This document shows, in pieces, positions 8,970 to 55,812 of a stretch of 64,000 nucleotides of DNA. The stretch is from Mageeibacillus sp. UBA5439 (GTDB taxonomy: Bacteria > Bacillota > Clostridia > Saccharofermentanales > DTU023): assembly GCA_002427505.1 (NCBI GenBank), contig DIRJ01000038.1, forward strand, positions 45,659 to 109,658, in the 5' to 3' direction. A program made the translations under genes and the position numbers. The notes under the pieces were generated by a model. That model did not search any database. It was not told the origin of the DNA and saw only the letters and a list, made by a program, of their open reading frames with translations. Every line of letters starts with the position of its first letter. Position 1 is the first letter of the stretch.

Positions 8970-11468
8970 TTAAGCTTCGCTCGGATCCACTTCTTCTTCG
9001 GCGGTCTCTTCGACGACTTCCTCGACAGGCGCTTCGACGACTTCCTCGACAGGTGCTTCGATTGTTTCTTCAGCGGTCTCTTCGGCTGCTTCTTCCGTCA
9101 GATCTGTTACAGGCTCTTTCTTTGCTTCAGCTTTGTCAGCTTTTTCTTCGGCAGCCTCTTCTTTGAAGCTGTCAATAAAGTCTGAACCCTCTTTAGTAAC
9201 CGCGGTGAAATCAGCAAGCTGCGATATGGAAGATGAAGCGGGGCGATCAACATAGGTTGTCGGCAGCTCATTGGAACTTTCCTGACGCTTGCCCCGGCGA
9301 CGAGCTGGACGTTGTTCCTTGCGTTCTTCAGCACGTTTGACAACTTCGGAATCAGGATCCGGATTGATCGGCTCGACTTCGCGTATGCTGACGCTGATAC
9401 GGCGAGTTTCATCGGAAACCTCGACTACACGAGCATCAACTTCCATACCTTCATCGAGAACTTCATTAGGTGTGTTCAATCTGTAATCCGATATCTGCGA
9501 AATATGACAAAGGGCATCCACCCCAGGCGCGATATTGATGAAAGCACCAAAGGGGAACATGCGCACAACAACTCCGCGAACGATCATCCCCAGCGGGAAA
9601 CGTTCTTCGATACTGGCATACGGATCATCCTCTTTTTTGCGGTAGCCAAGTGAGATACGCTTTCTCTCACGATCAAAGTCTATAACGTGTACTTCAATAA
9701 CATCATCAACCGATAAGACATCGGATGGATGGCGTACACGCTGCCACGATAGTTCGCTGATGTGCACGAGTCCGTCCACGCCACCGATATCAACAAAAGC
9801 GCCAAAATTGGTAAGATTGCGGACAACGCCCTGATATACTTCACCAACTTCCATGGTATCCCATATTTCACGCGCTTTGTCACGCCGTTCACGTTGTAAG
9901 AGAGAGCGGCGCGATCCTGAAACACGCAAGCGTCTGCGATTTGGATCAAATTGGGTTACTAAGATATCAAAGGTCTTATCCATGTAGGGTTCCAGATCTT
10001 CAACGCGGCTGAGTTCCAGCTGAGTGCGATGAATGTAGATGTTGATGCTGCCATAGGCTGCGATCACACCGTCCCTGACAATTTTAACTACTTTTACTGT
10101 TACAGGTCTTTTTTCTTCAAATGCTGCTTCTACTTGTTCCTTGTGTTTAACAAAGTCAACACGAGCCTTCGATAAATTAATTTCTTTGCCCATGTCTGAG
10201 CTACGGATATTCCGCACATAGACATCAAGTTCCATGTGTTCTTGACACGCTTGTTCCAGATCGATATCGGGGTCGGCTTCAAACTCGCGGATCGGTATCC
10301 TTCCTTCTGTTTTATCCCTCACGTCGACGTAGACAAATTCATCGTCGTACCGAACAATTCTTCCCTTTACAATACTGCCTTTTTTCAATTCAGGAATACT
10401 GTCGATAAACTGTGTGAAGTCCACTTCAGGCTGCTCATCAGGCTGTTCTGGAGTTTCCTCCTGGGTTTCTTCAATTAGCTGCTCTGTCGTTTGCTCAAGC
10501 TCTTCTTCAGGCTGCTCTTGCCGCTCTTCGGGCTGCGCTAGCTGCTCTTCCGGCTGCGCTAGCTGCTCTTCCGGCTGCTCTTGAAGTACTTCCAGAGGCT
10601 GCTCTTCATTAATCAAGCCTTCTTTTTCCGTCATGTTTTGGATAACCTCCCTGATCATCTCTTCTGGTGTTGAGGCTCCGGCAGTGATGCCAATCCTCTC
10701 TGAACTCAAAACCTTTTCATATACGTCAAAAGGAATTTGGTCCGGCCTATCTATCCAATATGTGTTTTCACAATGCTCGCAACATATCTCATACAGTTTA
10801 GCAGTATTTGAGCTGTTGCGACCGCCCAATACAATCATGAGATCAGAATTTGCTGCAAGTGAAGACGCATCAGACTGCCTACGATCAGTCGTGACACATA
10901 TTGTATCAAAAATATCATAATTAGCAATTTTTTTCTGCAAAAGCTCACAAATCTCGCGCCATTTGTCAACAGAAAAGGTCGTTTGTGAGACTACAATCCA
11001 CTTTTTATCAGAAAACTCATACTTTTCAGCATCTTCCGCAGTTTCAAGAATAATTACTTCAGCCTCACCCGCATATCCGACTACACCCTGGACCTCAGGA
11101 TGATCACCGGTACCGGTAATAATGATGCCACTGCCTTCAGCGGCAGCATCTCTGACGATTTTCTGAATTTTCTTTACGAAAGGGCAGGTTTCATCGATGA
11201 TAGTACAGGAACGTTCCAATAGAGCCTGCTCAATTTCCGGAGAAATGCCATGAGCCCGAATCAGGACTCGTGAACCTGCTTCAATCTCATCGACAGAATT
11301 TGCCAGAATAACGCCTCGTTCAAGCAGGTCATCGACAACTGATTCGTTGTGAACAATAGCCCCCAGCATGTATAGAGGGCTAGAGTCCTCTTGCGCGGCT
11401 GCTTTGACAGCAGATTTGACAGCAATATTTACGCCGGGGCAAAATCCGGCGTTATCAGAAACTATAAT
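8970..11468 (-). CDS. ispH: bifunctional 4-hydroxy-3-methylbut-2-enyl diphosphate reductase (IspH/LytB) / ribosomal protein S1-domain fusion
   Basis: The N-terminal half is IspH-like and the C-terminal half holds four S1 domains (GxVxxxxxFGAFV-type). The track ORF starts at ATG 11369. The same frame stays open to 11501 and encodes KKKIIVSDNAGFCPGVNIAVKSAV, the conserved IspH N-terminus including the first Fe-S cysteine. The 5' end given here is the ATT at 11468-11466 and is uncertain. Confidence 0.85.
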   Translation of the reverse strand: MIVSDNAGFCPGVNIAVKSAVKAAAQEDSSPLYMLGAIVHNESVVDDLLERGVILANSVDEIEAGSRVLIRAHGISPEIEQALLERSCTIIDETCPFVKKIQKIVRDAAAEGSGIIITGTGDHPEVQGVVGYAGEAEVIILETAEDAEKYEFSDKKWIVVSQTTFSVDKWREICELLQKKIANYDIFDTICVTTDRRQSDASSLAANSDLMIVLGGRNSSNTAKLYEICCEHCENTYWIDRPDQIPFDVYEKVLSSERIGITAGASTPEEMIREVIQNMTEKEGLINEEQPLEVLQEQPEEQLAQPEEQLAQPEERQEQPEEELEQTTEQLIEETQEETPEQPDEQPEVDFTQFIDSIPELKKGSIVKGRIVRYDDEFVYVDVRDKTEGRIPIREFEADPDIDLEQACQEHMELDVYVRNIRSSDMGKEINLSKARVDFVKHKEQVEAAFEEKRPVTVKVVKIVRDGVIAAYGSINIYIHRTQLELSRVEDLEPYMDKTFDILVTQFDPNRRRLRVSGSRRSLLQRERRDKAREIWDTMEVGEVYQGVVRNLTNFGAFVDIGGVDGLVHISELSWQRVRHPSDVLSVDDVIEVHVIDFDRERKRISLGYRKKEDDPYASIEERFPLGMIVRGVVVRMFPFGAFINIAPGVDALCHISQISDYRLNTPNEVLDEGMEVDARVVEVSDETRRISVSIREVEPINPDPDSEVVKRAEERKEQRPARRRGKRQESSNELPTTYVDRPASSSISQLADFTAVTKEGSDFIDSFKEEAAEEKADKAEAKKEPVTDLTEEAAEETAEETIEAPVEEVVEAPVEEVVEETAEEEVDPSEA
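9008..9055 (-). repeat. in-frame 24-bp tandem repeat (2 copies, 23/24 identical) in the acidic C-terminal tail of IspH-S1
   Basis: cttcgacgacttcctcgacaggcg followed by cttcgacgacttcctcgacaggtg. Encodes APVEEVVE x2. Confidence 0.9.
10531..10572 (-). repeat. in-frame perfect 21-bp tandem repeat in the IspH-S1 interdomain linker
   Basis: ggctgcgctagctgctcttcc x2, flanked by degenerate copies. Encodes PEEQLAQ repeats inside EQPEEQLAQPEEQLAQPEERQEQPEEELEQ. Confidence 0.9.
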
Positions 11469-11493: not shown

Positions 11494-12282
11494 TTAATTT
11501 TCTATATCCGCTTCATTGCTAATTTCTTCTATATTCTCCCACAAATTGTGCTCATCGTCCAGTACCCTTACTTCGACCATTTCCTGCATAACCCGCTTAC
11601 ACTTCTCAGCCTCAGGATTATAATATTTTTGATCGCCCATTTTGTAGACACGCCGCATCAGTTCGTTGGATATAGCCAGGCTGCTTTGTTTATCAAGCTT
11701 CTTCCCTTCGCGCAAGCTGAGCAGAACAGTCGGACCGATCACAACCTTGGGTCTGCTGAAGAGGTATTTCTTGCCCGTAACTGAGCAAAGCTGAATCGGA
11801 ATGCCTTTTTTAATGGCCAGTTGTATCGTCGTCGACTTGGGTGGATTAGCTACTGCATTTCCGCCCAGTGTGACGCCGCCTTCAATAAAAATGCCCACAA
11901 TATGCTCATTTATCAGTTCGTTAATGATTCGCTTGGCTGCCTGAATGTCGTTTGCTTCCCGGTCAATCGGAAATATATCAAAACTTTTTAAGAAATACGT
12001 CGCTATTGGAATATTAAATAGAGACTCTTTGGCCAGCCAATGTAAATGCGGAGAACGATATCTGATGTAAATTAAAGCAGGATCCAGGATGCTGTTATGG
12101 TTGCAGATCAGCATCATTGGCCCTTTGCGTCCCTTAGTTTTACTGGAGATAATCACCCGGGGCAAGAAGACCAAATGCAGGATCGGCACAGCAATCAGCA
12201 TAAAGACAGCGCGCCTGACAGGATGCTTTGAAGCGGGTATATAGTTTTTCCCCTTGGGGGTTTCAGTCTCTGTCCGGAACAT
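11494..12282 (-). CDS. plsC: 1-acyl-sn-glycerol-3-phosphate acyltransferase family protein
   Basis: HX4D acyltransferase motif CNHNSILD and a later IFIEGG block. Sits in the cmk-plsC-ispH context. Its start overlaps the upstream gene end by 20 nt. Confidence 0.8.
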   Translation of the reverse strand: MFRTETETPKGKNYIPASKHPVRRAVFMLIAVPILHLVFLPRVIISSKTKGRKGPMMLICNHNSILDPALIYIRYRSPHLHWLAKESLFNIPIATYFLKSFDIFPIDREANDIQAAKRIINELINEHIVGIFIEGGVTLGGNAVANPPKSTTIQLAIKKGIPIQLCSVTGKKYLFSRPKVVIGPTVLLSLREGKKLDKQSSLAISNELMRRVYKMGDQKYYNPEAEKCKRVMQEMVEVRVLDDEHNLWENIEEISNEADIEN

Positions 12283-13588
12283 TTAAATTCACATTCGCCC
12301 TTTTTTTAACCAGGTCCAGCATTTCTTCAACTAAATCATCGACAGAGCGTCCGCTTGTATCAATCAAGATCGCATCCTCTGCTTGTTTTGTCGGAGCTAA
12401 GGCACGGTTGCTGTCATTATAATCACGTTGTTGCATGTCCAGCAAGACATCTTCATAATTGCCGTTCTCACCTTTTTGCAGCATTTCCTCATAACGTCTC
12501 CTGGCCCTTATTTCCAGACTTGCTGTCACGAAAAATTTCACAGTTGCCTGGGGCAGCACGTAAGTCCCGATATCCCGTCCATCCAGAACTAAAGACTGGC
12601 GGTCTGCCAGTGCCCGCTGCAGGTCCACACAAAAGTGACGGCAGACGCTGAGCGCGCTGATATCGGAAGCCGCCTGAGATACAGCCGGAGTTCTTATGTC
12701 CTGAGTGAACTCGATGCCATCAACAAAAGTACGCTGTCCGTCAGGAGCAAGTCCTACATCAAGATCCGTAGCGGCCAGCATTTGCTGAATCTCTGCTTCA
12801 TCGGCCGGATTCAAACCCTGACGGAGGGCTTTTAAAGCCAAAGCGCGATACATGGCTCCCGTATCTAAAAATAAAATGGAGAGTCGTGATGCTAATTCTC
12901 TGGCCAGGGTGCTCTTACCTGCTCCAGAGGGTCCGTCTATCGCAATAACAAGAGTTTCCTTCACATCATGGTCCTCCGTCTCTTCCAGTTTCCGATCTGA
13001 ATTTTCCTCAGATAATTTTTTCAATTTACGCTCTGTTTCCTCATCTGCGTATTCACTTACCTCGTCATACATAAGCAGGTCCACTGCTTCCAGGTCCTGA
13101 GTGGATTTCAGGCCGAAGTCTGCCAGAAACAGTTCGCTTACATAAAGTAATCCGGGTCTGCCCGGAACGTCCAGCGTCCCTCTTTGTTCAACTAAACCGC
13201 GTTCAATCAGGCGCGAAACAATGCTGTCACTGTTCACACCTCGCACCATCTCTATTTCCGATCTGGTGACCGGCTCGCTATAGGCTATAACTGCCAGCAC
13301 TTCGTATGACGCCTGAGACAGATCCTGCCGGTTCCTGGGGTCAAACAGAAGGGACAGGCTCTCACCAAGCTCCGCTTTGGTAGAGAGAGCAACTTTGTCG
13401 TTGATTTCACTTAAACGCAAAGCTGAGTGCACGTCAATCTGATAACGCCGCTTCAACTGATCCAGAAGCAAATCCAGCCTTTGGGTGCTTAGATCCATCA
13501 GGTCTGCCAGCTTCGTTTTCTCAATCGGATCCCCTGCAGCGAATAAAAACGCCTCCAGCAGGACCAGAGCTTCAACATCGCTCAACAT
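12263..13588 (-). CDS. ScpB (segregation and condensation protein B) fused in-frame to cytidylate kinase
   Basis: Aa 1 to about 185 are ScpB-like (LLEAFLFAAGDP..., SQASYEVLAVIAYSEPVTRSEIEMVRGV). An acidic linker follows. From about aa 223 it is Cmk-like (IAIDGPSGAGKSTLARELA, LDTGAMYRA). Single uninterrupted ORF. Confidence 0.85.
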   Translation of the reverse strand: MLSDVEALVLLEAFLFAAGDPIEKTKLADLMDLSTQRLDLLLDQLKRRYQIDVHSALRLSEINDKVALSTKAELGESLSLLFDPRNRQDLSQASYEVLAVIAYSEPVTRSEIEMVRGVNSDSIVSRLIERGLVEQRGTLDVPGRPGLLYVSELFLADFGLKSTQDLEAVDLLMYDEVSEYADEETERKLKKLSEENSDRKLEETEDHDVKETLVIAIDGPSGAGKSTLARELASRLSILFLDTGAMYRALALKALRQGLNPADEAEIQQMLAATDLDVGLAPDGQRTFVDGIEFTQDIRTPAVSQAASDISALSVCRHFCVDLQRALADRQSLVLDGRDIGTYVLPQATVKFFVTASLEIRARRRYEEMLQKGENGNYEDVLLDMQQRDYNDSNRALAPTKQAEDAILIDTSGRSVDDLVEEMLDLVKKRANVNLNVPDRD

Positions 13589-14361
13589 ACAGCCTTCTCC
13601 TTAGCTTCTATATAAATCGGCGAAAATACTGATCTTTGCTTTGCAGTGATCTGATTTCGCCGCAGCAGTTCAAGGACAGCCAGAAAACCTGCTATGCGTG
13701 TTTCCTTGGACTGTTCAGGCGGAAATAGTTCATAAAAGAAAAAGCGGGGTTTTTCATTCAGCTTATCTATGAGCTCATTCATGCAGGAATTAACTGAAAT
13801 TCTTTCCCGCTGCAATATTTGCTGCATGGTACTTTTACTGGACTGAAAGCGGGCTGTATTACGGTTGACAATCGTGTCAACCGCTTCAGCAAAGCGATCA
13901 ATATTCAGTTTCTGCCTTCTTGTTTCTTTCTTTATACCCAGACGCTGGGGTGATTCTTCAGGCTTATAATAAGTCAGGGCATAGATTTCGCGCCGCTCCT
14001 TTAATTGCATGGCAATCATGCGGCAGCGTCTGTAGCGTAGAAGTTGAAAGATTAATTCGCTGCTGGGATCAAACTCAGTTGCTGTTTCTGTTTCCATTTT
14101 GGAAGACGGCAGCAGCAGACTCGATTTGATCTGTATCAGCGTAGCTGCCATGAGCAGAAAAGAGCTGACCAGATCCATGTCAAAAGCAGGCATTTTTTTG
14201 ATTATCTCTAAATACTGATCTGTAATTGATGCGATCGAAACTTTATCTAAAGCCACATTGCCGCGCTCCAATAAATGGTCCAGAAGCGCCAGCGGACTCT
14301 CGAAAGAGTCCACATTTATATCCGGCTCCCTACTGTCAGTTTCTAGTATCTCATTCGCCAT
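13582..14361 (-). CDS. scpA: segregation and condensation protein A
   Basis: 259 aa kleisin-like protein with FESPLALLDHLL at the N-terminus. Overlaps the scpB start by 7 nt. Confidence 0.85.
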   Translation of the reverse strand: MANEILETDSREPDINVDSFESPLALLDHLLERGNVALDKVSIASITDQYLEIIKKMPAFDMDLVSSFLLMAATLIQIKSSLLLPSSKMETETATEFDPSSELIFQLLRYRRCRMIAMQLKERREIYALTYYKPEESPQRLGIKKETRRQKLNIDRFAEAVDTIVNRNTARFQSSKSTMQQILQRERISVNSCMNELIDKLNEKPRFFFYELFPPEQSKETRIAGFLAVLELLRRNQITAKQRSVFSPIYIEAKEKAVC

Positions 14362-14371
14362 AATAACCGTT

Positions 14372-15088
14372 TTAAAAAACCATAGGCGGCAAGCCCAGTG
14401 CTATCTGGATCTTTTGGAAGATCCAGCTGATCGGTTGTCTGATAATGTAATCAAAAGGAAGCTGAACCCAGTTTAAAACCGTGGAAAGCGCTCCGCGAAA
14501 AAATACCACGATCACAACGAAAACCAAGCCGATGATTCGCTCCTTCTGCATAATTTTATAGTAAAGGTCCGCGGGCAGGAGGGCACCAAATATCTTATAG
14601 CCATCCAAAGGCGGCACCGGCAGCAGGTTAAATACTGCCAGCCAAATATTTACTACGTATAAGTTAAAAAACAGTTTCATGAACACATGTACAACTGAAC
14701 TGCCGGCCCAGCCAAAAGCCACGGCCACAGTATACAGAAGACAATAGAGAAAGCAGGAGATCGCACTTAAAATCACATTGGACAGGGGTCCCCATAAACT
14801 TGTGTAGACCATGCCCTGTCGAGTTGATTTTGCCTTTGTGAAGCGTGCAGGGTTGATCGGTACCGGCTTTGCATAGCCAATCCCCAGAATTAAAAACATC
14901 AAAAATCCGATCGGATCAATATGTTTTAGCGGATTCAGGGTCAACCGGCCACTTAAGGCAGCAGTATCATCACCCATACGGAAGGCGGCATAGGCATGCG
15001 ACGCTTCGTGTACTGAAATCGACAGGCTTAGAACCAGAATCGTTATCAGCAGGTTAATAACATCAATTCCACCAAATATATCTAACAG
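14372..15088 (-). CDS. site-2 protease family (M50) membrane metalloprotease
   Basis: The track ORF begins at ATG 14977 (MGDDTAALSGRLTLNPLKHIDP). The frame is open upstream and encodes ...LVLSLSISVHEASHAYAAFR, the HExxH zinc motif. I set the 5' end at CTG 15088-15086, which lies 6 nt after a GAGGT Shine-Dalgarno. The start codon is uncertain. Confidence 0.8.
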   Translation of the reverse strand: MLDIFGGIDVINLLITILVLSLSISVHEASHAYAAFRMGDDTAALSGRLTLNPLKHIDPIGFLMFLILGIGYAKPVPINPARFTKAKSTRQGMVYTSLWGPLSNVILSAISCFLYCLLYTVAVAFGWAGSSVVHVFMKLFFNLYVVNIWLAVFNLLPVPPLDGYKIFGALLPADLYYKIMQKERIIGLVFVVIVVFFRGALSTVLNWVQLPFDYIIRQPISWIFQKIQIALGLPPMVF

Positions 15089-15118
15089 ATTATTACCTCA
15101 TTTCGCTTTAACTCGTAA

Positions 15119-15127
15119 ATTATAGCA
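15119..15127 (-). promoter_or_regulatory. candidate extended -10 promoter element (TGCTATAAT) for the M50-scpA-scpB/cmk... unit
   Basis: The minus strand reads TGCTATAAT about 30 nt upstream of the proposed CTG start. No good -35 seen. Confidence 0.4.
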
Positions 15128-15177
15128 TAGCTATTCAATTTCAAAACGCTTTCAGAAAAGCTGAATTGTTGTATTAG

Positions 15178-16809
15178 TTATGGTTCCGTCAGGTAGATAT
15201 CAAGACCATCCGAACTTATCATCTCATCATTGACAGTGACAAACAATGCCTCAACCTGTTCAAAGGAGGATAGGAAGGAATCAATTTCATCAGCCGGAGT
15301 CAGGAACAAGGCAGTTGACAAGGTGTCACCCAGGCTGCCATCCGGGCTGATCACGGTCACCGAACTGTAAATATTTCCCGGGCAGAGTGTCAGCGGATCA
15401 ATAATATGATGATAAGCCACACCCTCATAGTTATAAGTGCGTTCATAGGAGCCGGAAGTGGTCACAGTCATATCCTGAACAGAAAGAACTTCAATTATAC
15501 CGTTTTCCTGTTCCGGATCCGGATTTTTCACACCCACTTTCCACTTGCTATTTTTAAAATTATTCTGTCCCCCCGCATAAATATTGCCCCCCAGGTCCAG
15601 CAGAAAATTCTCCGCTCCGGCCTGTTTGAGATCTTGAATCAAAAGGTCTAAAGCATATCCTTTGGCGATTGCGCCTACATCTACAGAGGCTTGCGGATCT
15701 TTGATGTAGGCAGTACCGGCCGCATGATCAAGCAGCAGATCATTGATATCACAATGAGCGGCTGCTTCTTTCAGCAGATCATCTGCAGGTATCCGGGCAT
15801 GATCAGGATGGGCCAGAGAATATTGGCGTGCCTCATGCCATAAAGAAGTAACCGCACCTAACATGATGTTGACCCTGCCCTTGGTCAGCTCTGCTGCATC
15901 AATGCCAAGCTGCAGTAAATTCATAGTTTCTTCATCCAGGGCTACCGGTGCAATTCCGGCTTGTTCATTGAGGTCTTTTAAGCTGTTTACCTCCCCTGAG
16001 TCAGCATCGAATATATTGAATTTCTGATCAAACTCCTGCAGACGCTGCTCCAGGATATCGTGCCATTCTTCAAACTGCTCCTCATCATCAGTGTAAACAA
16101 GCAGTCTGCTGACAGTATCCAGATACTGTGTAAACAGAGCTTCCTGTTTCTTCGGCTTCTGATCAGCCGGAGCACAGGAAAAGGAAAATAGCATCAGGGG
16201 AAGCAAAAATACAGCGAGCAGAATATGTGACGAGTGTTTTAGCCATGACTCCAGCGGCCGCTGGGCCGCTTTTAGGATCAGAGAGGAAAGTGTACCCGTA
16301 ACTACAGCCAGTATAAGCAGCAAAGCCACCAGGTAGTTCCAGGAAACCGGCACCTCACTAATCAGGAGGAAGATCAGGAACTGACCCAAATTATGAAACA
16401 AAGCTCCTGTCACCGATAAAATTAACAGTGGCAGTTTTTTCCGGGAAAGCTTCAGCAAAACTATCATCGCCAGCAGAGACAGGACACTGCCGGTTAAAGA
16501 TGTCAGACCTGCCAGAAGACCGCGGGTTAAAAATACATAAAGACTTTTGCCCACTGTTACACAGGCAGCACTGCCATAAGAAAGGTAAAGCAAAGCTGCC
16601 ATTACCGCCACATTCGCCAGTCCATAGCGCATCGGGATCGGGGTTGGCAGAGCCGGCAATAATGATTCAAAAAGACTCAGAGCCAAAGCCATGGCCAAAA
16701 ACAAGGCGCTCAGGACTAATTGCCGTGTTTTCGCTCTTGTATTTACTTTTGAACCGGATTCAGGCAACAGCATCCACTCCTTCAGTTTCTGATCTTCCCT
16801 GCAGCACAA
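15178..16809 (-). CDS. apbE: fusion of a Gx-transporter-family (Hpre_diP_synt_I, ECF-S-like) membrane domain with FAD:protein FMN transferase ApbE
   Basis: The N-terminal about 190 aa are polytopic (LVLSALFLAMALALSLFESLLP..., GLANVAVMAAL). A hydrophobic segment plus Cys follows (LLAVFLLPLMLFSFSCAP). The rest is ApbE-like (GAIAKGYALD, TSGSYER, HHIIDPLT). The start could be ATG 16773 instead. Confidence 0.8.
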   Translation of the reverse strand: MCCREDQKLKEWMLLPESGSKVNTRAKTRQLVLSALFLAMALALSLFESLLPALPTPIPMRYGLANVAVMAALLYLSYGSAACVTVGKSLYVFLTRGLLAGLTSLTGSVLSLLAMIVLLKLSRKKLPLLILSVTGALFHNLGQFLIFLLISEVPVSWNYLVALLLILAVVTGTLSSLILKAAQRPLESWLKHSSHILLAVFLLPLMLFSFSCAPADQKPKKQEALFTQYLDTVSRLLVYTDDEEQFEEWHDILEQRLQEFDQKFNIFDADSGEVNSLKDLNEQAGIAPVALDEETMNLLQLGIDAAELTKGRVNIMLGAVTSLWHEARQYSLAHPDHARIPADDLLKEAAAHCDINDLLLDHAAGTAYIKDPQASVDVGAIAKGYALDLLIQDLKQAGAENFLLDLGGNIYAGGQNNFKNSKWKVGVKNPDPEQENGIIEVLSVQDMTVTTSGSYERTYNYEGVAYHHIIDPLTLCPGNIYSSVTVISPDGSLGDTLSTALFLTPADEIDSFLSSFEQVEALFVTVNDEMISSDGLDIYLTEP

Positions 16810-17179
16810 TTACAAAATTATTAGGCAGGCAGGCTGCAAACTGACCTGCAAATCTGATTCTGCCTGTTTTGACGCAGACTTGATCCGGACAATCAGATCT
16901 TACAATGGCTATTGACCGATCAGGCCATTGCTGAATTTCTATCGCCGGAAGCTGGTCATAGGAAAGAAGCCGGCTTGTCCCCTCCTCCAGAATAAAGCGA
17001 TCAATCACCACGCCTTCGTGATACACCAGCACCTCAATGCTGTCTGCAGGATTCAATAATGGCGGAATCAGCAATAGGGTCAGGGCCGCCACTACTATTA
17101 ATCCTAATAGAATAAAATCACGCGGTCTGGCCCAGGGGCGCTGCTCGCGTGATTTATCGCTTCTTATCTCATTGTTCAT
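16760..17179 (-). CDS. NusG domain II-containing (DUF1312-type) membrane-anchored protein
   Basis: N-terminal TM helix, then SDCPDQVCVKTGRIRFAGQFAACLPNNFVIVLQG, which matches the CPDxxC...CLPN signature of this family. Confidence 0.75.
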   Translation of the reverse strand: MNNEIRSDKSREQRPWARPRDFILLGLIVVAALTLLLIPPLLNPADSIEVLVYHEGVVIDRFILEEGTSRLLSYDQLPAIEIQQWPDRSIAIVRSDCPDQVCVKTGRIRFAGQFAACLPNNFVIVLQGRSETEGVDAVA

Positions 17180-17221
17180 TTATTTTCTTACTTACTTTAG
17201 TTATCGACAGACAGAAGCCGG

Positions 17222-18844
17222 CTATCCTTCGTCACTTGTGTCTGAAGGATCAACTGTCTCTGTTGCCGACTCAGCTGCTGTCGGCTCCGAAGCAGGGTCT
17301 GTTGGCACCGGCGTTACTTCAGTCTCCACAGGCTTAACTGTTAAGCTGAACTCAAAAACAGCATTTTCCTTTAGGCCATTGTCAGCTGTCAGGATAACTG
17401 TATAAACACCTGCCGGCAAACCTTCGGCAATCACTAGCTCCTGCGCAGCATCATTCCAGCTAATCCCGTCATTACTAGAGTTTATGCTCAGTCTGGGTGC
17501 AGGATGTCCGCTAATTTCAAATGCTCCGGAAGACGCTTGCTTATATCCTTCAATTAATTCCAGACTTGACGGACCTGAAATCAGCGGCGCTTGCTGGGCC
17601 TTTTCAACAATTAAAGTGAACTTCAATGTCATGTCATCAAGGCTGTTACTTACTTTCAGATTGATCTCATATTTCCCCTGAGTCAATCCCGCAGCAATAT
17701 CAATTTTCTTGCTTGTATTGTTCCAGCTAATCTTTGTGCTGTCCGGGTTCATACTGATGCTGATTTCAGGCGACGGATTACCAGTAATTGTAAAGGCAGC
17801 TGTCGAAGTCTTTTTGTAGCCTTCTGTCAATGTCAGAGTTTTATCACCACTTATGGACGGTCCTTTAAATAGTCCCTGATAGGGGTTCTCCTGATGCCAG
17901 TCAGTCGGATCCCAGCCAAGTCTGCCGGATATGCTGTAGGGTTTGCCGGCCTGGACTGCAGGAACGGACTGCGGTGTTGGCCAGGAATAACCGGAACTAT
18001 TCGTTAAAATATAAAGAGGCATACCGGGGTAAGCATAGCTTTGCATCTTAGCTGCATCCCGAACACTTAAACGAATACAGCCACCGGTTGTTTTATATCT
18101 GCCCAAAGCATACATACCGCCGATCCAGCATTCATTATATTCGGGTCCCTTGGAACCGCTATACTCATATGGAACAGAGTGAAAAAAGTAATCACCCATT
18201 ATTTGCGTAGGATAGCGCACGTAGCAGTCACCCAGTAAGGAAAACTTTAGATATGACGGTCTGAAGGCCGTGATTCTGATTGGTTTTCCCTCAGGCGCCT
18301 TGGGAGTTGCATTGTTGTAGCCGGTAGAACAATAAAATGCCTCTATCGGTATTTCCTGATCAGCTTCATCCAATCCATAGATTACGGTAACCTGCATGTC
18401 TTCAAAGACGCGGATAGAATGAGCCCTGCCCACTTTACCCACAGGCTTGGCAGCAAGATTAGCAGCTATTGTTGTTGTCGTTGTCGTTTTGCTTGCAGCA
18501 GTAGGGGATGTCTCCGTACTAGTAATACTATGTCTGCTTTTGCTGGGAGGAGTGTTCTCATTAAAAGCAGAACTCGAAGCAGGCTCAGATTCACCATGAG
18601 GCGGCGTATCACTGCTAGTGCCGGTCACAGCCGAAGTCGCTGTTGAGCTGTCTGCTTCACCACTGCTGGGATCGGAGGGCGTAAAATTCTGCATATTCGG
18701 AACACAGGCTAAGAGAACAGATGCCAGTAATAAAAGCATAGTAATTGAAGAAAGCAGCCCCAGCCCTCTTCTTAGTTTTATGTTTTTAAACTTAGTCAAA
18801 GTAAACTCCCGGCAAAGATGTATAGTTGTACCAATACTACACAT
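17222..18844 (-). CDS. L,D-transpeptidase (YkuD) family lipoprotein with two tandem Ig-like repeats
   Basis: Signal peptide ending LLAC. S/T-rich spacer. YkuD catalytic block FHSVP...TTGGCIRLS. Two C-terminal repeats of about 90 aa follow (roughly 17330-17870). Confidence 0.8.
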   Translation of the reverse strand: MCSIGTTIHLCREFTLTKFKNIKLRRGLGLLSSITMLLLLASVLLACVPNMQNFTPSDPSSGEADSSTATSAVTGTSSDTPPHGESEPASSSAFNENTPPSKSRHSITSTETSPTAASKTTTTTTIAANLAAKPVGKVGRAHSIRVFEDMQVTVIYGLDEADQEIPIEAFYCSTGYNNATPKAPEGKPIRITAFRPSYLKFSLLGDCYVRYPTQIMGDYFFHSVPYEYSGSKGPEYNECWIGGMYALGRYKTTGGCIRLSVRDAAKMQSYAYPGMPLYILTNSSGYSWPTPQSVPAVQAGKPYSISGRLGWDPTDWHQENPYQGLFKGPSISGDKTLTLTEGYKKTSTAAFTITGNPSPEISISMNPDSTKISWNNTSKKIDIAAGLTQGKYEINLKVSNSLDDMTLKFTLIVEKAQQAPLISGPSSLELIEGYKQASSGAFEISGHPAPRLSINSSNDGISWNDAAQELVIAEGLPAGVYTVILTADNGLKENAVFEFSLTVKPVETEVTPVPTDPASEPTAAESATETVDPSDTSDEG

Positions 18845-19037
18845 CTTCAGATTTTATTTCTATAGATCTTATCATAACAAATATAGGCCATTTGTAGTAG
18901 ATGATACGAAATCAATAGACTATAATCTGCTGAAAAATCAATGCTTTATTTATAGATTTTCATAGTAGCTATGTTATATTTAATGTAATTTGCTCTCTCT
19001 GCCAGACAATACAGGAGATGCAAAATGAAAGTGAATT

Positions 19038-20324
19038 ATGTCAGCATCCGGAAAGAAAACAAGCACTAATCGCCACTACACTTCTGCCACTTACCGCAGT
19101 AATTTCCGCTATCGTTTATCTTTCCCTATACTTAAAGTTCTACTCACCCCTGTAATCTGGTTTTTATTCAATTATAGAGCTGATTACTACGACGCACCTA
19201 AAGACGAGAACTATTTAATACTGTCTAATCATACAGGTTCTCTGGATCCCTTGATGCTGGCAAAAAGCTTTAGAAGACCGATTTTTTTCGTCGCCTCTGA
19301 TCATTTGTTTCGTCTGGGTATTATCAGCAAGATCATAGATTTCCTTGTAGCCCCTATTCCCATTATCAAATCAAAACAGGATCTGCAGGCTCTGCGTAAT
19401 ATTAGTTCAGAGCTGGCAAATGGCAATACAGTTGCCTTGTTTCCCAGTGGGAGCCGGTCAGTCAGCGGGCCGGAAGAAGCTATCCCCCGCGCTACCGGCA
19501 AATTGCTCAAAATTTTGAAAGTGCCGGTTCTGCTTTATCGTCTCGAGGGCGGCTATCTCAGTTCCCCTCGTTGGGCCAGGTCACACCGCCGCGGAAAAAT
19601 GAGCGGCAGAGTTGTGTATAAGCTGACAGCCGCCGATATTGAAAGATCTACACCTGAAGAGCTGAACAGGATTTTGTATGAGCATCTGGATGCCAACCCC
19701 TACGCCGGCAAAGAAAGAAATACTATTAATTATCTGGGCCGCAACTACGCTCAATATCTGGAACGCATATTCTGGAAGTGTCCTTCCTGTTTGCGCTTAC
19801 AAAGCTTGAAGTCAGAAAAAGATATTGTCTTCTGCAACTGCGGTTTCCGTCTGCGCTACAATGCCAGAGGCTACTTTGAAGCTGCGGGGAATACTGCCAG
19901 GGACCAGTTCTACGCAATACGTTTCCCGCAGGTGGATAGTTTTTATCAGTGGCAGCTAAATGAATTAAAAAAAGACTTCAGTACTGAGAAACTGGCATCA
20001 ATGAATTTGCGTCAATCAATTTTTACTGATAACGAAGAGACACTGGTACTAACATCCAAAGCCCGCAAAAATCAGAAAGTACTAAAAGGTTCACTCGCTC
20101 TCTACCCCGACAGATTGGAATATCTTGATCCTCATAGCGGAGTCTGTTTCCGCTTCCCTTTGGCGCAAATCTTTGATATTGACTGTATCGGTCCCCAGCG
20201 ATTACAGTTTACAGATGCTCGGGACCAGCTGGTTTATGAAAGCTATAATAAAAAGCCCCGCTCCGCTTATAAATATATAGAAACAATTAAACAAATTAAG
20301 TCGCAGTTTCTATCAAGCAGATGA
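19038..20324 (+). CDS. lysophospholipid/glycerol-phosphate acyltransferase family protein with a C-terminal extension of about 200 aa
   Basis: HX4D motif SNHTGSLDP and FPSGSRS block. The C-terminal half contains CPSC...CNCG (possible Zn ribbon). Confidence 0.7.
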   Translation: MSASGKKTSTNRHYTSATYRSNFRYRLSFPILKVLLTPVIWFLFNYRADYYDAPKDENYLILSNHTGSLDPLMLAKSFRRPIFFVASDHLFRLGIISKIIDFLVAPIPIIKSKQDLQALRNISSELANGNTVALFPSGSRSVSGPEEAIPRATGKLLKILKVPVLLYRLEGGYLSSPRWARSHRRGKMSGRVVYKLTAADIERSTPEELNRILYEHLDANPYAGKERNTINYLGRNYAQYLERIFWKCPSCLRLQSLKSEKDIVFCNCGFRLRYNARGYFEAAGNTARDQFYAIRFPQVDSFYQWQLNELKKDFSTEKLASMNLRQSIFTDNEETLVLTSKARKNQKVLKGSLALYPDRLEYLDPHSGVCFRFPLAQIFDIDCIGPQRLQFTDARDQLVYESYNKKPRSAYKYIETIKQIKSQFLSSR

Positions 20325-32080: not shown

Positions 32081-33772
32081 CTAATCTTCGATCAAGGCAT
32101 CCAAAACTGCTTGCGGGGGAACCAGAAGTTCTTCACCGGTAAAGATATTGTCACCAACTGCTTTACCGTTATACTCCATGAAGGCTGCATACAGCTCATC
32201 AGAGTAAGTTCCGTATGATTCCATCATTATGCCCCAGGGCGAGTCACCGGCCTGAACAACATAGGTCGAATCCGCCGGTGCCGGAGTCGTTTCAGTTGTA
32301 TCTTCCGTGGGATCGGTCTGTGTATCTGTAGGATCAGTATTCACCGGCGGCACGATGACCGGCGGTGTTTCAGTGGAAACTACAGGTGTGGTCGTGTTTG
32401 ATTCTGTCGAATCCGGATCATCTTTACCGCCACCCAGAAGTTTAATCAAAGCGAAAATACATAAAGCGATTATTGCGATCAGAACAACATAGAAAACAAT
32501 CTGTTTATTGCGGGAAGAACGGACATACTTGGCACGCTCATCATCCTCATCATAGTAAAGATCGTCATCATCATCACCCAGATAACTGTCATCCCAGACC
32601 TGGCCTTTGTAGGCACTGCTGCTGTAGGCATCATCCTGGTCTGCAGAATCATCGTAGATTTCACCCTGTCCGAAGCGTCTGCGCTGATCTTCAGGAGAAG
32701 TGTAGGCAAAACCGGGAACAGCGGGCGTGCTGTCATCTTTGATCTGATCAAAAGATGCTGTTTCATTATCCGGTTCAGAATATTCCGGTCTGAAGGCGGC
32801 ATCCGTGTCATCCGGCTTTTCCCAGCTGTCATCAGGTTTAGCTTCCGCTTCCGGTTCGCTTAAAAAATCTACCATATCCTGACGCTGGTAACGCTGTGTT
32901 GCCTGCTCATCCGGATCAGCCGGGACAGGAGCATCAAAGGGTGTTCCCATCACAACCTGAGTATTGAAACGCCCCAGATTAAGCTGGGAAGATTTACGGC
33001 TGTCTTCCATCACAGACTCCACCATGCCCAGCATCAGCTGCAAGGGAGTACCCGGCACCTGGGCGGACGCTGACGTAAGCAGGAGACCGGCAGCATCGTA
33101 CTGATCTTCAGCACTATTCAGAATACGCATAATGTCTCTTTGTCCCAGCGCCTGATACAGCTCCTGATTACAAATAAGAAGAACATCTCCCTGCTCAATC
33201 TGGGCTATGTTGGAGTAACGTAAAGTGCCGGCTTCTCCGGCAATAAAATCATTAATACCGCCCACGGCCTGTCCGTCAGCGTCAACTGCATTAAAATCCA
33301 TTGTCTCATCAGTGAGGGGGTAAAGAACGCCGCGACGGTAGAGCATGGCTGCTCCGGCACCTAGTGTTACGGCTGCCACTTCACCATCGCGCAGTACAAA
33401 TCCTGAAAAATACGGCTCACGGGCTCCTGCTTCCGCAATGGTTATCCGGCCTGTAACATCCATAGCGGCGTCGGCTAAATCATTGAGTCCGCTATCGATG
33501 TCACTGGAAGGATCATTTATTTTTTCTGTCAGGCGCTCGAGAGGCTCCCGCCAGGATGTGTCGTCTTCCTGCCTATTATACGGATAGCCGAAAATTGAAA
33601 ACAGAAAACCCCTGTCTTCACGGTCCAGCGTTGAATCAACAGACCTTTGCTCTCGTCTGCCTGGGAAGCGGCCATCCAGGCAGTATGAATCAACAATTCC
33701 CTCTGTCGGATAGTAGCGGGCTGCCACAGTAAGTGCCAATCGCGTAAAAACAGTAGATGATGACTTGGCCAT
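32081..33772 (-). CDS. membrane protein: degenerate PP2C-like N-terminal domain, acidic linker, one TM helix, Pro/Thr-rich spacer, C-terminal LysM
   Basis: PP2C-like blocks with catalytic residues replaced: TLGAGAAMLYRRGVLYPLTDE versus the usual GDSRxY...T.DH, and GDVLLICNQEL versus GDxLLLCSDGL. TM helix QIVFYVVLIAIIALCIFALIKLL. C-terminal YVVQAGDSPWGIM...GEELLVP is LysM-like. Confidence 0.6.
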   Translation of the reverse strand: MAKSSSTVFTRLALTVAARYYPTEGIVDSYCLDGRFPGRREQRSVDSTLDREDRGFLFSIFGYPYNRQEDDTSWREPLERLTEKINDPSSDIDSGLNDLADAAMDVTGRITIAEAGAREPYFSGFVLRDGEVAAVTLGAGAAMLYRRGVLYPLTDETMDFNAVDADGQAVGGINDFIAGEAGTLRYSNIAQIEQGDVLLICNQELYQALGQRDIMRILNSAEDQYDAAGLLLTSASAQVPGTPLQLMLGMVESVMEDSRKSSQLNLGRFNTQVVMGTPFDAPVPADPDEQATQRYQRQDMVDFLSEPEAEAKPDDSWEKPDDTDAAFRPEYSEPDNETASFDQIKDDSTPAVPGFAYTSPEDQRRRFGQGEIYDDSADQDDAYSSSAYKGQVWDDSYLGDDDDDLYYDEDDERAKYVRSSRNKQIVFYVVLIAIIALCIFALIKLLGGGKDDPDSTESNTTTPVVSTETPPVIVPPVNTDPTDTQTDPTEDTTETTPAPADSTYVVQAGDSPWGIMMESYGTYSDELYAAFMEYNGKAVGDNIFTGEELLVPPQAVLDALIED

Positions 33773-43672: not shown

Positions 43673-44743
43673 TTAGTAACGGAAACGAGCTGCAATTCTC
43701 TTTTCCATTTCCTTCACGGAAACCGGAACCATGACCACATTGCCTGCCATCTGGAAACAGTCACGAACAAGTTGGTCCAATTCCTCCCTCTCTTCATCAC
43801 AGTAATCACTGCGGATATACAATGTTTCGATCTTACACTCGTCCGCTGCATTTTTTATGTCACTCATGCGAGTAGATGCCTTGCCGTCAGCCAAACCTTT
43901 GGCCAGACTGTCCATTCCTCTTTTTATTTCCTCATTCTGGATATTGTCAAAAATATTAAGGATCGCTGCTTTCAGACTTTGTGGGTCAAAATCATGGAGC
44001 GGCTTGCCCAGATCTTCTTTAAGGTATACTTCATTTGTCGCGACCGAGCGCCAGTCCGCCATGTTTTCGCGAACTCCCGACAAGATAACGGGCGATCGTT
44101 TGTCGGCAAAATACGCTGTCAGATTTTCTTCCAGATATCGATAATACTTGATCTTATCAATTTCTTTCATTTCTGCAGCAGAGCGGTGACCATGAAATGC
44201 TGTGCCGCCTTTGCCGCCGTAGCTGCCGAAGTTCACATCGGAGTCAGGATCCAGATCAGGGAATAATTCCGTAAAGGTCAGGATCCCATGATCCTCAACC
44301 ACTTTCAGTTTTGATCCGTCCCCACGATGAAGACGGAAGCGGTCTCGGCCTATATCCAGAATATAGTGGCTGGATATATGTTGTTCAGCAGCCAGCAAGG
44401 GCAACAAATGCAGAATTCCCTGTACTACTACCAGATCATCTACAGCTTCGGACAAGTTGTAGATCAGCATATTCCTGTCTCTTAAGAAAAGAGCAAAGGC
44501 TTCACTTCTGTCATTCCAGAAAACGGTATCTTTCTGCAGGTCCTGCAGAAGCTCCATCTGTTCCTTCAGCGCTTTTCGATCCAAATATTTTGCCAGTTTT
44601 TCTTCTGCTTCCTTAATCAGATTCTTGAAACGAATGGCATTGGATCCCGGATCGGATCCTTCATGCGGAGTAGATTGATAGAGTGATAAAACTGTAGCAG
44701 CTTCATCATTCATCTTGCGGATTTTAGGGTGAAGTCTGTCCAT
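43673..44743 (-). CDS. bacterial eRF1/Pelota-like (baeRF-type) protein of unknown function
   Basis: GSYGGKGGTAFHGHRSAAEMKEIDKIKYYRYLEENL parallels the eRF1 GGQ loop region. The following regions parallel the end of the eRF1 M domain and the C domain. The N-terminal SLYQSTPHEGSDPGSNAIRFKNLIKEAEEKL resembles bacterial baeRF families. See findings. Confidence 0.6.
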   Translation of the reverse strand: MDRLHPKIRKMNDEAATVLSLYQSTPHEGSDPGSNAIRFKNLIKEAEEKLAKYLDRKALKEQMELLQDLQKDTVFWNDRSEAFALFLRDRNMLIYNLSEAVDDLVVVQGILHLLPLLAAEQHISSHYILDIGRDRFRLHRGDGSKLKVVEDHGILTFTELFPDLDPDSDVNFGSYGGKGGTAFHGHRSAAEMKEIDKIKYYRYLEENLTAYFADKRSPVILSGVRENMADWRSVATNEVYLKEDLGKPLHDFDPQSLKAAILNIFDNIQNEEIKRGMDSLAKGLADGKASTRMSDIKNAADECKIETLYIRSDYCDEEREELDQLVRDCFQMAGNVVMVPVSVKEMEKRIAARFRY

Positions 44744-50551: not shown

Positions 50552-51223
50552 TCAGATCAATTTCTTCTTATACATGATCCTCGATACAGCAACCGTCATG
50601 GCCACACTGATGGGGATCAGGACACTGACTGCACTCGAAAGCGAAGGCCGGATCAGGAAGAGGGTCAACATCAGCACAAGTGGTGCTACAGCGATCTTCC
50701 AGTTTTTTGCCAGGAAAACGATAGCCAGCCCCCCAAAAAGTGCCGGCAAAACATTGGCGAAGGCAGGTGCCAGCTTTGCTGATTCCAGTATAGGGCTGAG
50801 AATGTTCAGGAGAACTATGCCTAACACCAGAATGACAGTTGTCACAATGGAACTCACAGCGATAGCAATAGTTGAAACCACTTCGCCCTCTTCTGTGTTA
50901 GGCTCGACACCGGCAATTTGCATAGCCCTGAGTGCTGCCGGTACCTTCATAGCGGTTAGGTTTCCGGTGACAAAACCAAGATAAGATCCGCCGGACCCCA
51001 GCATGGGACTGAAGGTAAAGGCTTCAATTATTCCTACGGTCCAGAAGACCGGTGCTACCGCCAGCAAGCCCTGAAATACAGCCGCCCCATCCGGCCAGAC
51101 CTTGAAAAGCACCGACGTAAAAAACGGATAGGACATAAAGAGCAGTATCGCCAGAACCAAAGAGACTCTGCCCCAGCGATGAACCTTTTCCGGATAATTG
51201 GAATATTTCTTTTTGTTCTCCAT
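50552..51223 (-). CDS. polytopic membrane protein, unassigned family (second of a coupled pair)
   Basis: Start at ATG 51223 (MENKKKYSNYPEK...). Its GGAGG SD lies inside the last codons of the upstream gene. Multiple TM helices. Confidence 0.6.
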   Translation of the reverse strand: MENKKKYSNYPEKVHRWGRVSLVLAILLFMSYPFFTSVLFKVWPDGAAVFQGLLAVAPVFWTVGIIEAFTFSPMLGSGGSYLGFVTGNLTAMKVPAALRAMQIAGVEPNTEEGEVVSTIAIAVSSIVTTVILVLGIVLLNILSPILESAKLAPAFANVLPALFGGLAIVFLAKNWKIAVAPLVLMLTLFLIRPSLSSAVSVLIPISVAMTVAVSRIMYKKKLI

Positions 51224-51225
51224 AT

Positions 51226-51951
51226 TTAGCCTCCGATCCATTGGGTCAGCGGGATGGCGAAGGCCATTCCACCCAGCATGCTAAAGGGCATGGCGTAGTT
51301 CTCCAGCCACTTCCAGTTTAATAGTTTGACCAGCAGACCGAATATGGTCATCAGCAAGGCAGAGAAGAGCATGACGAAGACCGGTATCCAGCCAGGCAGA
51401 CCGGATCTGATGTCGGCAAAAACCATACCCAGAAAGGTAGCAATCATACCGACGAAGAGAGAATCCATCAGGATGGAGCTCCAGCGCTGATCTTTAGTTT
51501 TCAGCTTCTGCAGGCGCTGATTCATATTTTTCTGGAAAAAGAGGATAATCAGGATACCCGACATAATCCCCAGTGTCATTACCCAGGCAATGGCGACATA
51601 GGCTGATCCGTCCGTGACCGGCTGATCCATCGGTAAATTCATAGCTTGTGCCGTGGAGGCTACAGCCGGCAGCTCGTAGGTCAGTGCGCCCAGCACGGAC
51701 AGACGCAGCCAGGGCAACGGCAGGCCGAGGAAGCGCGACAGGCTGATCAGGCCCAGCAGGACGCCGATGGCCGGCGCAATCGTGAAGAGCGCGCTGCCAA
51801 AAGCTACTCCACGCAGGACTTTGGCTTCGATCTTCAGCTCTCTGGCCCGTCTCCAGGCTTTCGCCATAAAGAAAACGGATTGTCCTATCACATAGAGTAT
51901 GACCACTCCGGCCAAAACAAAGAGGATAGGATGATTGACATTAAACTCCAT
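51226..51951 (-). CDS. polytopic membrane protein, unassigned DUF-type family (first of a coupled pair)
   Basis: 241 aa with several TM helices and a conserved-looking LGLPLPWLRLSVLGALTYELPA block. Confidence 0.6.
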   Translation of the reverse strand: MEFNVNHPILFVLAGVVILYVIGQSVFFMAKAWRRARELKIEAKVLRGVAFGSALFTIAPAIGVLLGLISLSRFLGLPLPWLRLSVLGALTYELPAVASTAQAMNLPMDQPVTDGSAYVAIAWVMTLGIMSGILIILFFQKNMNQRLQKLKTKDQRWSSILMDSLFVGMIATFLGMVFADIRSGLPGWIPVFVMLFSALLMTIFGLLVKLLNWKWLENYAMPFSMLGGMAFAIPLTQWIGG

Positions 51952-55400: not shown

Positions 55401-55793
55401 TTACTGATTTAATGCATTGTACACAGCGGCCTTGATCACTTCGCTGGAACTGGTCGCGCCGCTGATGGCGTCGACATTCACGCTTTGAGCACGGATAATA
55501 TCCGCGACAATTGCCTCAGCCGCTTTGCCTCTGATTTGCCTGTGTAAGAGAATATCTATGCCTTCAATCTCCCCGTCCCCGACGGTCACCTCCAGCCGTA
55601 CTTTTACCAGACCCGCAAATTCTTCGCCTAGATATCTGCCGGCTGCAACTTGGCTGAGGTCCAGTTCAGAGTAGTTATTTTCTCTCAGCTCGCTTGTGCG
55701 CACCCGTGCCAGCATAAAAGCCATGAATATCAGCAGCAGGAGCAGGGAAACTGCCATGGCTGCTGATAATATCATGTACCTTTTTTTCTCCAC
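55401..55793 (-). CDS. membrane-anchored FMN-binding domain protein
   Basis: N-terminal TM anchor. C-terminal VDAISGATSSSEV matches the FMN_bind flavinylation motif. Confidence 0.8.
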   Translation of the reverse strand: MEKKRYMILSAAMAVSLLLLLIFMAFMLARVRTSELRENNYSELDLSQVAAGRYLGEEFAGLVKVRLEVTVGDGEIEGIDILLHRQIRGKAAEAIVADIIRAQSVNVDAISGATSSSEVIKAAVYNALNQ

Positions 55794-55812
55794 TTATTTC
55801 TCCCGGGCAAGG

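Follow-up and report, generated by a model that had tools for sequence, protein, structure and literature searches.

We analysed a 64,000-nucleotide stretch of DNA from Mageeibacillus sp. UBA5439 (contig DIRJ01000038.1, positions 45,659 to 109,658; hereafter the window), and in particular a pair of overlapping genes within it that encode EetA, a NusG_II/DUF1312 protein, and a single polypeptide in which a membrane domain of the EetB family is joined to the flavin transferase ApbE (Table 1). Our comparisons indicate that the EetB-ApbE fusion is real, that it is rare, and that it arose several times. The locus is likely to be an EetA/EetB/ApbE module for flavin export and flavinylation, from a Mageeibacillus-like clostridium whose eetB and apbE have been merged. 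Its one unusual trait is that a single gene encodes both the exporter subunit and the enzyme that attaches the flavin, which normally have neighbouring genes; in all else the locus conforms to a system that has already been described. An earlier note on this DNA had proposed that the membrane domain exports flavin adenine dinucleotide (FAD) to the transferase; that mechanism, which the note reached independently, had already been published for EetB (Rivera-Lugo et al. 2023, PMC9973259), and the idea is not new.

The two halves of the fusion are each recognized by a protein family. In the maximal open reading frame (ORF) of 543 amino acids (aa), PF07456 (Hpre_diP_synt_I, also called 'Gx transporter') matches residues 38-180 with an E-value of 3.7e-23 and a score of 82.6 bits (gathering cut-off 30), the match spanning profile positions 2-145 of 147, and PF02424 (ApbE) matches residues 231-523 with an E-value of 1.7e-61 and 208.5 bits against a cut-off of 25.6. 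Thus, a single ORF does join a Gx domain to ApbE, as the earlier note had claimed, with the refinement that 543 aa is the maximal length and that 529-531 aa is the likely one. In phmmer comparisons the ApbE domain matched Treponema pallidum Ftp (E 1.9e-39) and Listeria FmnB (E 1e-38). Against the NCBIfam model NF007774, which defines the enterobacterial ApbE equivalog, it scored 103.8 bits where 498 are needed, and NCBIfam did not see the EetB part; by these scores the domain is a member of the ApbE family and not the enterobacterial equivalog.

An AlphaFold2 model of the fusion, built with 94 sequences, had a mean predicted local distance difference test score (pLDDT) of 92.4 and a predicted template modelling score (pTM) of 0.68. 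The EetB domain was modelled as six helices (residues 7-36, 52-61, 64-82, 84-107, 114-136 and 143-177; pLDDT mostly >85), and in Foldseek searches the best match to the N-terminal part was the riboflavin transporter subunit RibU (3P5N, TM-score 0.70), followed by TmRibU/5KBW and BioY (4DVE). The C-terminal part matched 4XDT, 4IG1 and 7ESA (T. pallidum Ftp and Listeria FmnB) with TM-scores of 0.86-0.88. Moreover, the ApbE motifs AKG, GGN, TSGxYxR, YHHxIxP and DxLSTA are invariant in an alignment of nine fusions and align with those of Ftp.

Throughout, residues of the fusion are numbered according to the 529-aa product that starts at 16767. Public gene calls for the fusion start at this position and give 529 aa, and one of these products (P0001) is 100% identical to that of the window. 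A GGAG at 16780-16777 precedes both ATG 16773 and TTG 16767, whereas TTG 16809 is merely the first possible start of the ORF and is probably not used. With the likely starts, the overlap between eetA and the fusion gene is 8-14 nucleotides (nt), compared with 50 nt for the maximal ORF. The description of the preceding gene as an overlapping one that encodes a membrane-anchored NusG-II/DUF1312 protein stands as to its family (PF07009) and its transmembrane helix, with the overlap being the shorter one.

The frame across the EetB-ApbE junction is unbroken, without a stop codon or a frameshift, and the same fusion is present in independent assemblies. In particular, 24 public contigs were read that encode P0296, an EetA protein 100% identical to that of the window, and the JGI and Logan places shown (with 21 similar places collapsed) carry the same 529-aa fusion. 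Fused orthologues at 66-82% identity were found in JGI, ENA, Logan and NCBI data. In a scan with one genome per species, two uncultured Mageeibacillus metagenome-assembled genomes (MAGs), L008 (70% identity) and L009 (67%), likewise had both domains in a single ORF, which fits a Mageeibacillus-like member of the Oscillospiraceae as the source of the window. (Many 'full-length' matches in GTDB looked like further fusions, but analysis of their ORFs with hidden Markov models revealed adjacent split genes in all except L008 and L009.) Orthologues occur in both states, a point that the earlier note had suggested checking: among 80 related species genomes two are fused, 11 have adjacent split eetA-eetB-apbE, approximately 30 have eetA-eetB, then another gene, then apbE, and 7 have apbE-eetA-eetB. 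The gene that lies between eetB and apbE in these approximately 30 relatives is unannotated, encodes approximately 330-400 aa and has no Pfam hit (for example L026 4658-5881). Note that L026 has, upstream of eetA, genes for an Ndh2-like oxidoreductase and for a polyprenyl synthase, and so is a cluster of the electron-transfer type found in Listeria.

The rarity of the fusion was also evident when 1.84 billion cluster representatives were searched exhaustively: about ten fused clusters were among the best 150, with 12,893 ApbE-like clusters found at E<1e-10. Of the EetB proteins that stand alone, the nearest to that of the window (P0122 and P0123) are 48-49% identical to it by BLAST and are encoded in loci with the gene order of the window, namely a YkuD-like gene, eetA, eetB, apbE, an M50 peptidase gene, scpA, scpB, cmk, an acyltransferase gene and ispH-S1. 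In these split, syntenic loci eetB encodes 186-188 aa and apbE 348-358 aa, the two genes either overlapping by 14 nt (L005) or lying 45 nt apart (L006 and L007). The comparison identifies the window gene as an adjacent eetB and apbE merged into one frame in the window lineage. Nearest-neighbour comparison of the fusions showed that they are polyphyletic, each group being closer to split genes than to other fusion groups; fusion P0010, for example, is closest to the split genes of L076/L080 (60-62% identity), and P0009 is closest to those of L051. The separate groups are the window clade, P0009/P0150, P0010, P0148, P0149, P0151, P0246, P0270 and P0188/P0276/P0278. One of them, P0010 (locus L002), is encoded directly after rnfCDGEAB-eetA. 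A further protein, P0180 (635 aa), is a triple chain with the order EetB, transmembrane helix, EetA (NusG_II) and ApbE, and has no lipobox; it could be used to model the entire complex in one chain.

The split relatives also reveal what the junction of the fusion was. In the syntenic loci the N-termini of the stand-alone ApbE proteins are lipoprotein signals, MKRIRRGYLAVFFACLLLLSAC and ...IALLIVTAAVSC (...LLIVTAAVSC), and their hydrophobic core aligns with the window junction, ...KAAQRPLESWLKHSSHILLAVFLLPLMLFSFSC-APADQ, in which the cytoplasmic tail of EetB is joined to the hydrophobic core of the signal peptide and its Cys. By this alignment, the junction is the retained lipoprotein signal peptide of ApbE, now internal and preceded by six transmembrane helices. 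The signal-like segment accordingly occupies residues 181-198 and not the N-terminus of the precursor, where a lipoprotein would have it. The lipobox of the window clade departs from the strict consensus [LVI][ASTVI][GAS]C, with Ser at position -3 (SFSC in the window; SSSC and SLSC in its relatives), while a permissive PROSITE-type pattern matches 17 of the 18 fusions examined, that of the window included. The earlier note had quoted the junction correctly and had correctly seen that it misses the strict lipobox; the Cys and the small residue at -1, kept in all 18 fusions, and the canonical lipobox of half of them make the junction more than a relic anchor.

We entertained the idea that the fusion exists only at the level of the gene and the precursor. 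In this case Lgt would lipidate the junction Cys, signal peptidase II would cut before it, and the products would be a lipoprotein ApbE of the usual kind and an EetB carrying one additional helix at its C-terminus, so that the merger would be near-neutral functionally and would bring at most co-translation and equal stoichiometry. We hold this to be a serious possibility, though not the one that we favour. Consistent with it, Cys198 is invariant in all nine aligned fusions, and in 18 of 18 fusions, of several independent origins, a Cys is preceded by Gly, Ala or Ser at position -1. The strict lipobox is present in half of these (9/18, as LTGC, VTGC, LSSC, LTSC, LSAC, LVAC, LAGC, LSGC and others), and among members of the window clade the hydrophobic segment varies, in contrast to the Cys and its -1 neighbour, which have not changed. 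A Cys also lies upstream of the mature domain in 78 of 81 stand-alone related ApbE ORFs, many of them in a recognizable lipobox, and ApbE proteins are typically lipoproteins (PMC12052999); moreover, repeated fusion would be easily tolerated if cleavage restored two proteins. On the other hand, the Ser at -3 breaks the strict consensus in the window clade, the term 'internal lipobox' appears in none of the papers of the library searched and a broader search brought up no report of one, and the triple fusion P0180, which lacks a lipobox, must stay uncleaved, demonstrating that a tether can be permanent and viable.

Because the Cys has been kept though the hydrophobic segment has diverged, the fusion product may still be lipidated at the junction Cys and perhaps cleaved by signal peptidase II. 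The two outcomes that we consider are, then, that the fusion may serve intact as a tether for direct hand-off of FAD or may be lipidated and cut at the conserved Cys. To our knowledge there is no precedent for Lgt or Lsp acting on a signal peptide that lies behind a polytopic domain. We nonetheless raise, tentatively and as the somewhat unlikely case, the more general proposal that EetB-ApbE fusions are natural precursors with a functional internal lipobox after a polytopic subunit, lipidated by Lgt and cut by signal peptidase II. If true, one gene would yield an exporter subunit and a lipid-anchored client enzyme right beside it, the lipoprotein pathway would be able to process a signal peptide that is not N-terminal, and the repeated origin of the fusion without loss of the Cys would be explained. 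The conserved internal lipobox is in any event a small, testable oddity in lipoprotein processing.

Our preferred reading of the locus, that of an export and flavinylation module, draws on genetic work in Listeria. There, EetB (a PF07456 protein with a predicted RibU-like fold) pulls down FAD, and the export of FAD to the extracytosolic ApbE enzyme FmnB needs EetB, the energy-coupling factor (ECF) transmembrane subunit FmnA (ECF-T) and the EcfA/A' ATPases; deletion of eetB or fmnA abolishes flavinylation of PplA unless FAD is supplied (PMC9973259). In the same study the neighbours of eetB included eetA in 3,328 genomes and apbE in 2,169, with Rnf genes next to it in 572 Clostridia, PF07009 proteins were labelled EetA (Data Set S1), and EetB-ECF-T, EetB-ECF-A and EetA-EetB fusions were reported. 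The habitual linkage of NusG-II proteins to Gx proteins, which the earlier note had pointed out, agrees with these counts. The authors proposed that EetB may deliver FAD specifically to ApbE, leaving unclear whether FAD is freely released or handed off, and changes in extracellular flavin were undetectable in Listeria eetB mutants (PMC9973259). Note that the EetB-ApbE fusion is unmentioned in the main text of that paper, and that two Méheust/Huang surveys and a 2025 review of ApbE make no mention of PF07456, NusG or ECF fusions.

By analogy with these proteins, the EetB domain of the fusion would be a six-helix, ECF-S-type subunit with both ends in the cytoplasm that takes up FAD on the cytoplasmic side and brings it to the outside of the membrane, probably in dependence on an ECF-T protein and EcfA/A' encoded elsewhere. 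The seventh hydrophobic helix, formerly the lipoprotein signal of ApbE, is predicted to cross the membrane and to place ApbE outside, beside the exporter. There, ApbE would use the exported FAD to attach flavin mononucleotide (FMN) to the Thr of [S/T]GA[T/S] in FMN_bind proteins, with the anchored protein encoded at 55401-55793 as a candidate client and Rnf subunits encoded outside the window as probable ones. EetA would be a single-pass accessory partner with an extracytoplasmic DUF1312 domain. Thus, FAD export to an extracytoplasmic ApbE, as posited in the earlier note, is supported by the homologous Listeria proteins and by the predicted topology. The description of the module as 'compact' was overstated, given that the known system needs an ECF-T protein and two ATPases and that none of these is encoded in the window.

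The same parts could in principle serve salvage and not export, with an external ApbE/Ftp splitting environmental FAD into FMN and adenosine monophosphate and a RibU-like domain importing the flavin. The nearest solved structures of the N-terminal domain are indeed those of riboflavin importers (RibU 3P5N and 5KBW), and the best sequence match of the ApbE domain is T. pallidum Ftp, a bifunctional FAD pyrophosphatase and FMN transferase. Moreover, Asp256 (15999-16001, minus strand) aligns with N55 of T. pallidum Ftp, the position of the flavin-stacking Tyr60 in E. coli, and is Asp or Ser in the window clade; a polar residue at this site marks enzymes of the Mg-dependent FAD pyrophosphatase type, and E. 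coli Y60N gains hydrolysis (Deka et al., PMC4767422). We nevertheless judge salvage improbable. Transport in Listeria is strictly directional, RibU importing and EetB exporting (PMC9973259), and the domain belongs to PF07456/EetB and not to the RibU family. In addition, the eetA partner has been kept, a related fusion follows an rnf operon whose subunits need flavinylation, and the residue is Tyr in other fusions, as it is in the split relative L005 and in most relatives. (As a matter of speculation, an enzyme that wastes free FAD might gain from being coupled directly to its FAD supplier.)

The predicted topology of the fusion puts ApbE outside the cytoplasm. Lys and Arg residues number four at the N-terminus of the EetB domain, three in the loop at 108-113 and three in the tail at 166-180, compared with one, none and none in the opposite loops. 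This charge pattern, together with the six helices, argues for a topology with both the N- and C-termini inside, as in S-components. Published fusions of EetB to an ATP-binding cassette (ABC) ATPase likewise require that the C-terminus of EetB be cytoplasmic (PMC9973259). A cytoplasmic C-terminus followed by one further transmembrane helix would place ApbE outside, and the ApbE domain of the window fusion is thus predicted to be extracytoplasmic and not cytoplasmic, as one would expect of a domain that descends from an exported lipoprotein.

The EetA protein matches PF07009 with an E-value of 7.8e-17 (61.8 bits, cut-off 29.6). Its AlphaFold2 model (pLDDT 80.6) has an N-terminal tail, predicted to be cytoplasmic, that is rich in positive charges, a transmembrane helix at approximately residues 19-42 and a beta domain at 48-128, and its best Foldseek match was the structural-genomics entry 4ESN (DUF1312; TM-score 0.89), with further matches to 3LD7 and 4OBI, likewise DUF1312 structures from structural genomics, and to domain II of Aquifex NusG. 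An alignment of 31 members of the family revealed an invariant C-P-D-x-x-C...C-L-P-N (residues 96-120 of the window protein), the three Cys of which could form a metal or disulfide site. (The Listeria innocua homologue of solved structure, Lin0431, is without the first two Cys of this motif.) In the triple chain P0180 a single transmembrane helix intervenes between EetB and EetA, which, if the C-terminus of EetB is cytoplasmic, would put the EetA domain outside together with ApbE. From this order and from the positively charged N-terminus of EetA, we predict that the EetA domain is extracytoplasmic, alongside ApbE; the triple chain suggests the same outer face for both.

Several points weigh against the export reading. 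Deletion of eetA in Listeria gave no phenotype (PMC9973259). The Asp or Ser that takes the place of Tyr in the window clade means that the enzymology of its ApbE domain may differ. Whole-window Pfam annotation found no ECF-T (CbiQ), ECF ATPase or rnf gene in the 64 kb, and the energizing partners and main substrates are thus assumed and not seen. As for the model, the junction helix (181-196) is of low confidence (pLDDT 56-71) and, at a pTM of 0.68, the packing of the two domains is not established; helices 2 and 3 are not separated by the hydropathy profile alone. Moreover, transmembrane predictors count five segments in the EetB proteins of the published dataset (PMC9973259 Data Set S1), and an EetB with strictly five spans would leave ApbE inside. 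ApbE enzymes that are cytoplasmic do exist, and the extra helix could in that case return the chain to the cytoplasm, where ApbE would act like the cytoplasmic ApbE of Klebsiella. We regard this as very improbable: the six helices of the AlphaFold2 model fit the six-helix S-component fold, the charges fit a topology with both termini inside, the EetB-ABC-ATPase fusions need a cytoplasmic C-terminus, and the junction descends from an export signal whose lipobox Cys has been retained.

Least credible of all is the idea that an error of assembly or sequencing has turned two real genes into one ORF, or that ApbE is translated from an internal start: the split genes do overlap by just 14 nt in a close relative, where a one-base error could fuse them, but the independent contigs shown from JGI and Logan have the same 529-aa gene after eetA, fused orthologues occur in four data sources and in two MAGs, and none of the in-frame start codons (ATG, GTG or TTG) combines a ribosome-binding site with a workable signal peptide upstream of Cys198. 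(An out-of-frame ATG that follows a GGAG near the junction, at 16250-16240, opens merely a short, unrelated ORF.)

The candidate substrate named in the earlier note is present, with an FMN_bind match (PF04205, E 9.6e-11) and a DAISGATSS sequence that fits the flavinylation site [S/T]GA[T/S]; this is the sole FMN_bind-type [ST]GA[ST] site among the ORFs of the window. Its gene is 38 kb from the fusion, at the end of a nucleoside transporter and hydrolase operon. More precisely, it lies 19 nt downstream of two genes for inosine-uridine nucleoside hydrolases and of a Bmp-type ABC transporter (55401-62637, minus strand) that consists of a binding protein, an ATPase and two permeases, an unusual operon in which to find the gene of a flavinylated redox protein. 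The energizing module and any Rnf clients are, by analogy, presumably encoded elsewhere in the genome. ECF-T and ECF-A/A' genes were found near eetB in 291 and 796, respectively, of 4,214 genomes, most eetB loci being without them locally (PMC9973259).

Table 1. Positions within the window of the module and of its candidate substrate
Feature	Position	Strand	Description
eetA	16760..17179	(-)	139-aa single-pass membrane protein; PF07009 NusG_II/DUF1312
eetB::apbE fusion, maximal ORF of 543 aa	15178..16809	(-)	likely start ATG 16773 (531 aa) or TTG 16767 (529 aa)
EetB domain, residues ~7-177 of the 529-aa product	16237..16749	(-)	six-helix ECF-S-like subunit, predicted FAD binding/export; PF07456
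Junction, residues 181-198	16174..16227	(-)	hydrophobic helix HILLAVFLLPLMLFSFS, then Cys198 (codon 16176-16174)
ApbE domain (FAD:protein FMN transferase), residues 199-529	15181..16173	(-)	predicted extracytoplasmic; PF02424
Candidate flavinylation substrate, 130 aa	55401..55793	(-)	N-terminal transmembrane anchor and FMN_bind domain, DAISGATSS

The module is flanked by a gene for a YkuD-like lipoprotein and by the M50 peptidase/scpA/scpB-cmk block, and is detached from rnf. A scan of 14300-19200 for promoters and terminators found sites no more numerous than in shuffled sequence, and no operon boundaries could be defined from it. The upstream neighbour (17222-18844, minus strand) encodes a putative lipoprotein of 540 aa (…LLLASVLLAC) with a weak match to YkuD L,D-transpeptidases and with repeated C-terminal segments; the upstream neighbour of eetA is also a YkuD protein gene in L006 and L007. 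On the other side, scpB and cmk (cytidylate kinase) form a single ORF of 441 aa (12263-13588, minus strand), where the syntenic loci L006 and L007 have two, so that the neighbourhood and lineage of EetB-ApbE contain another gene fusion besides. Further along, ispH (LytB) is fused with S1 RNA-binding repeats (8970-11369, minus strand; 799 aa), a region called as two genes in L006 and as one in L007. Elsewhere in the window, the product of 43673-44743 (minus strand) matches several families of bacterial archaeo-eukaryotic release factors (baeRF), and ORFs of 563 aa (32081-33772, minus strand) and 229 aa (50552-51241, minus strand) are without a Pfam match, the second adjoining a DUF5058 gene.

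We reasoned that the repeated, independent fusion of EetB to ApbE, together with the triple chain P0180, is modest gene-fusion evidence that the three parts act as a unit. These arrangements favour targeted delivery of FAD to ApbE, and the fusion offers a single-gene construct in which such a hand-off can be tested.

When compared to known systems, the locus most resembles that of Listeria, in which EetA, EetB and FmnB work with FmnA and EcfA/A'. The same three families (PF07009, PF07456 and PF02424) are present, eetA is followed by eetB with apbE alongside, and a RibU-like EetB fold and an ApbE that acts outside are both predicted for the window. It differs from the Listeria system in that EetB and ApbE are one polypeptide, in that no gene for an FmnA-like ECF-T or for an ATPase lies nearby, and in that the window has none of the extracellular electron transfer genes ndh2, dmk and pplA, its likely clients being the small FMN_bind protein and, by clostridial analogy, Rnf. 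The clostridial rnfCDGEAB-eetA-eetB-apbE clusters come from the same class of organisms and have the same eetA-eetB-apbE order, whereas the module of the window lies away from rnf. Among solved folds, the N-terminal domain most resembles RibU (3P5N and 5KBW), with TM-scores of 0.61-0.70 and an identity of just 14-16%; RibU falls in another Pfam family and, in the experiments on Listeria, transported in the reverse direction. Stand-alone lipoprotein ApbE/Ftp proteins (T. pallidum TP0796 and those of E. coli and Vibrio cholerae) share the catalytic fold, the motifs and the position of the lipidated Cys with the fusion. In the fusion, by contrast, the signal peptide is internal, after a six-helix domain, the lipobox is non-canonical at -3, and an Asp stands in place of the flavin-stacking Tyr60 of E. 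coli, a polar residue as in T. pallidum (N55).

The published EetB fusions follow the same 'Rosetta stone' logic, in that partners of one machine are joined. They link EetB to its transport partners (EetA-EetB is also listed), whereas the fusion of the window joins EetB to the enzyme that consumes the FAD, and does so across the membrane. Similarly, in the ApbE-fumarate reductase fusions of trypanosomatids (PMC12052999) ApbE is joined to a protein with which it works; that protein is the target of flavinylation and the fusion is cytoplasmic or glycosomal, whereas in the window the partner is the supplier of the cofactor and the fusion spans the membrane.

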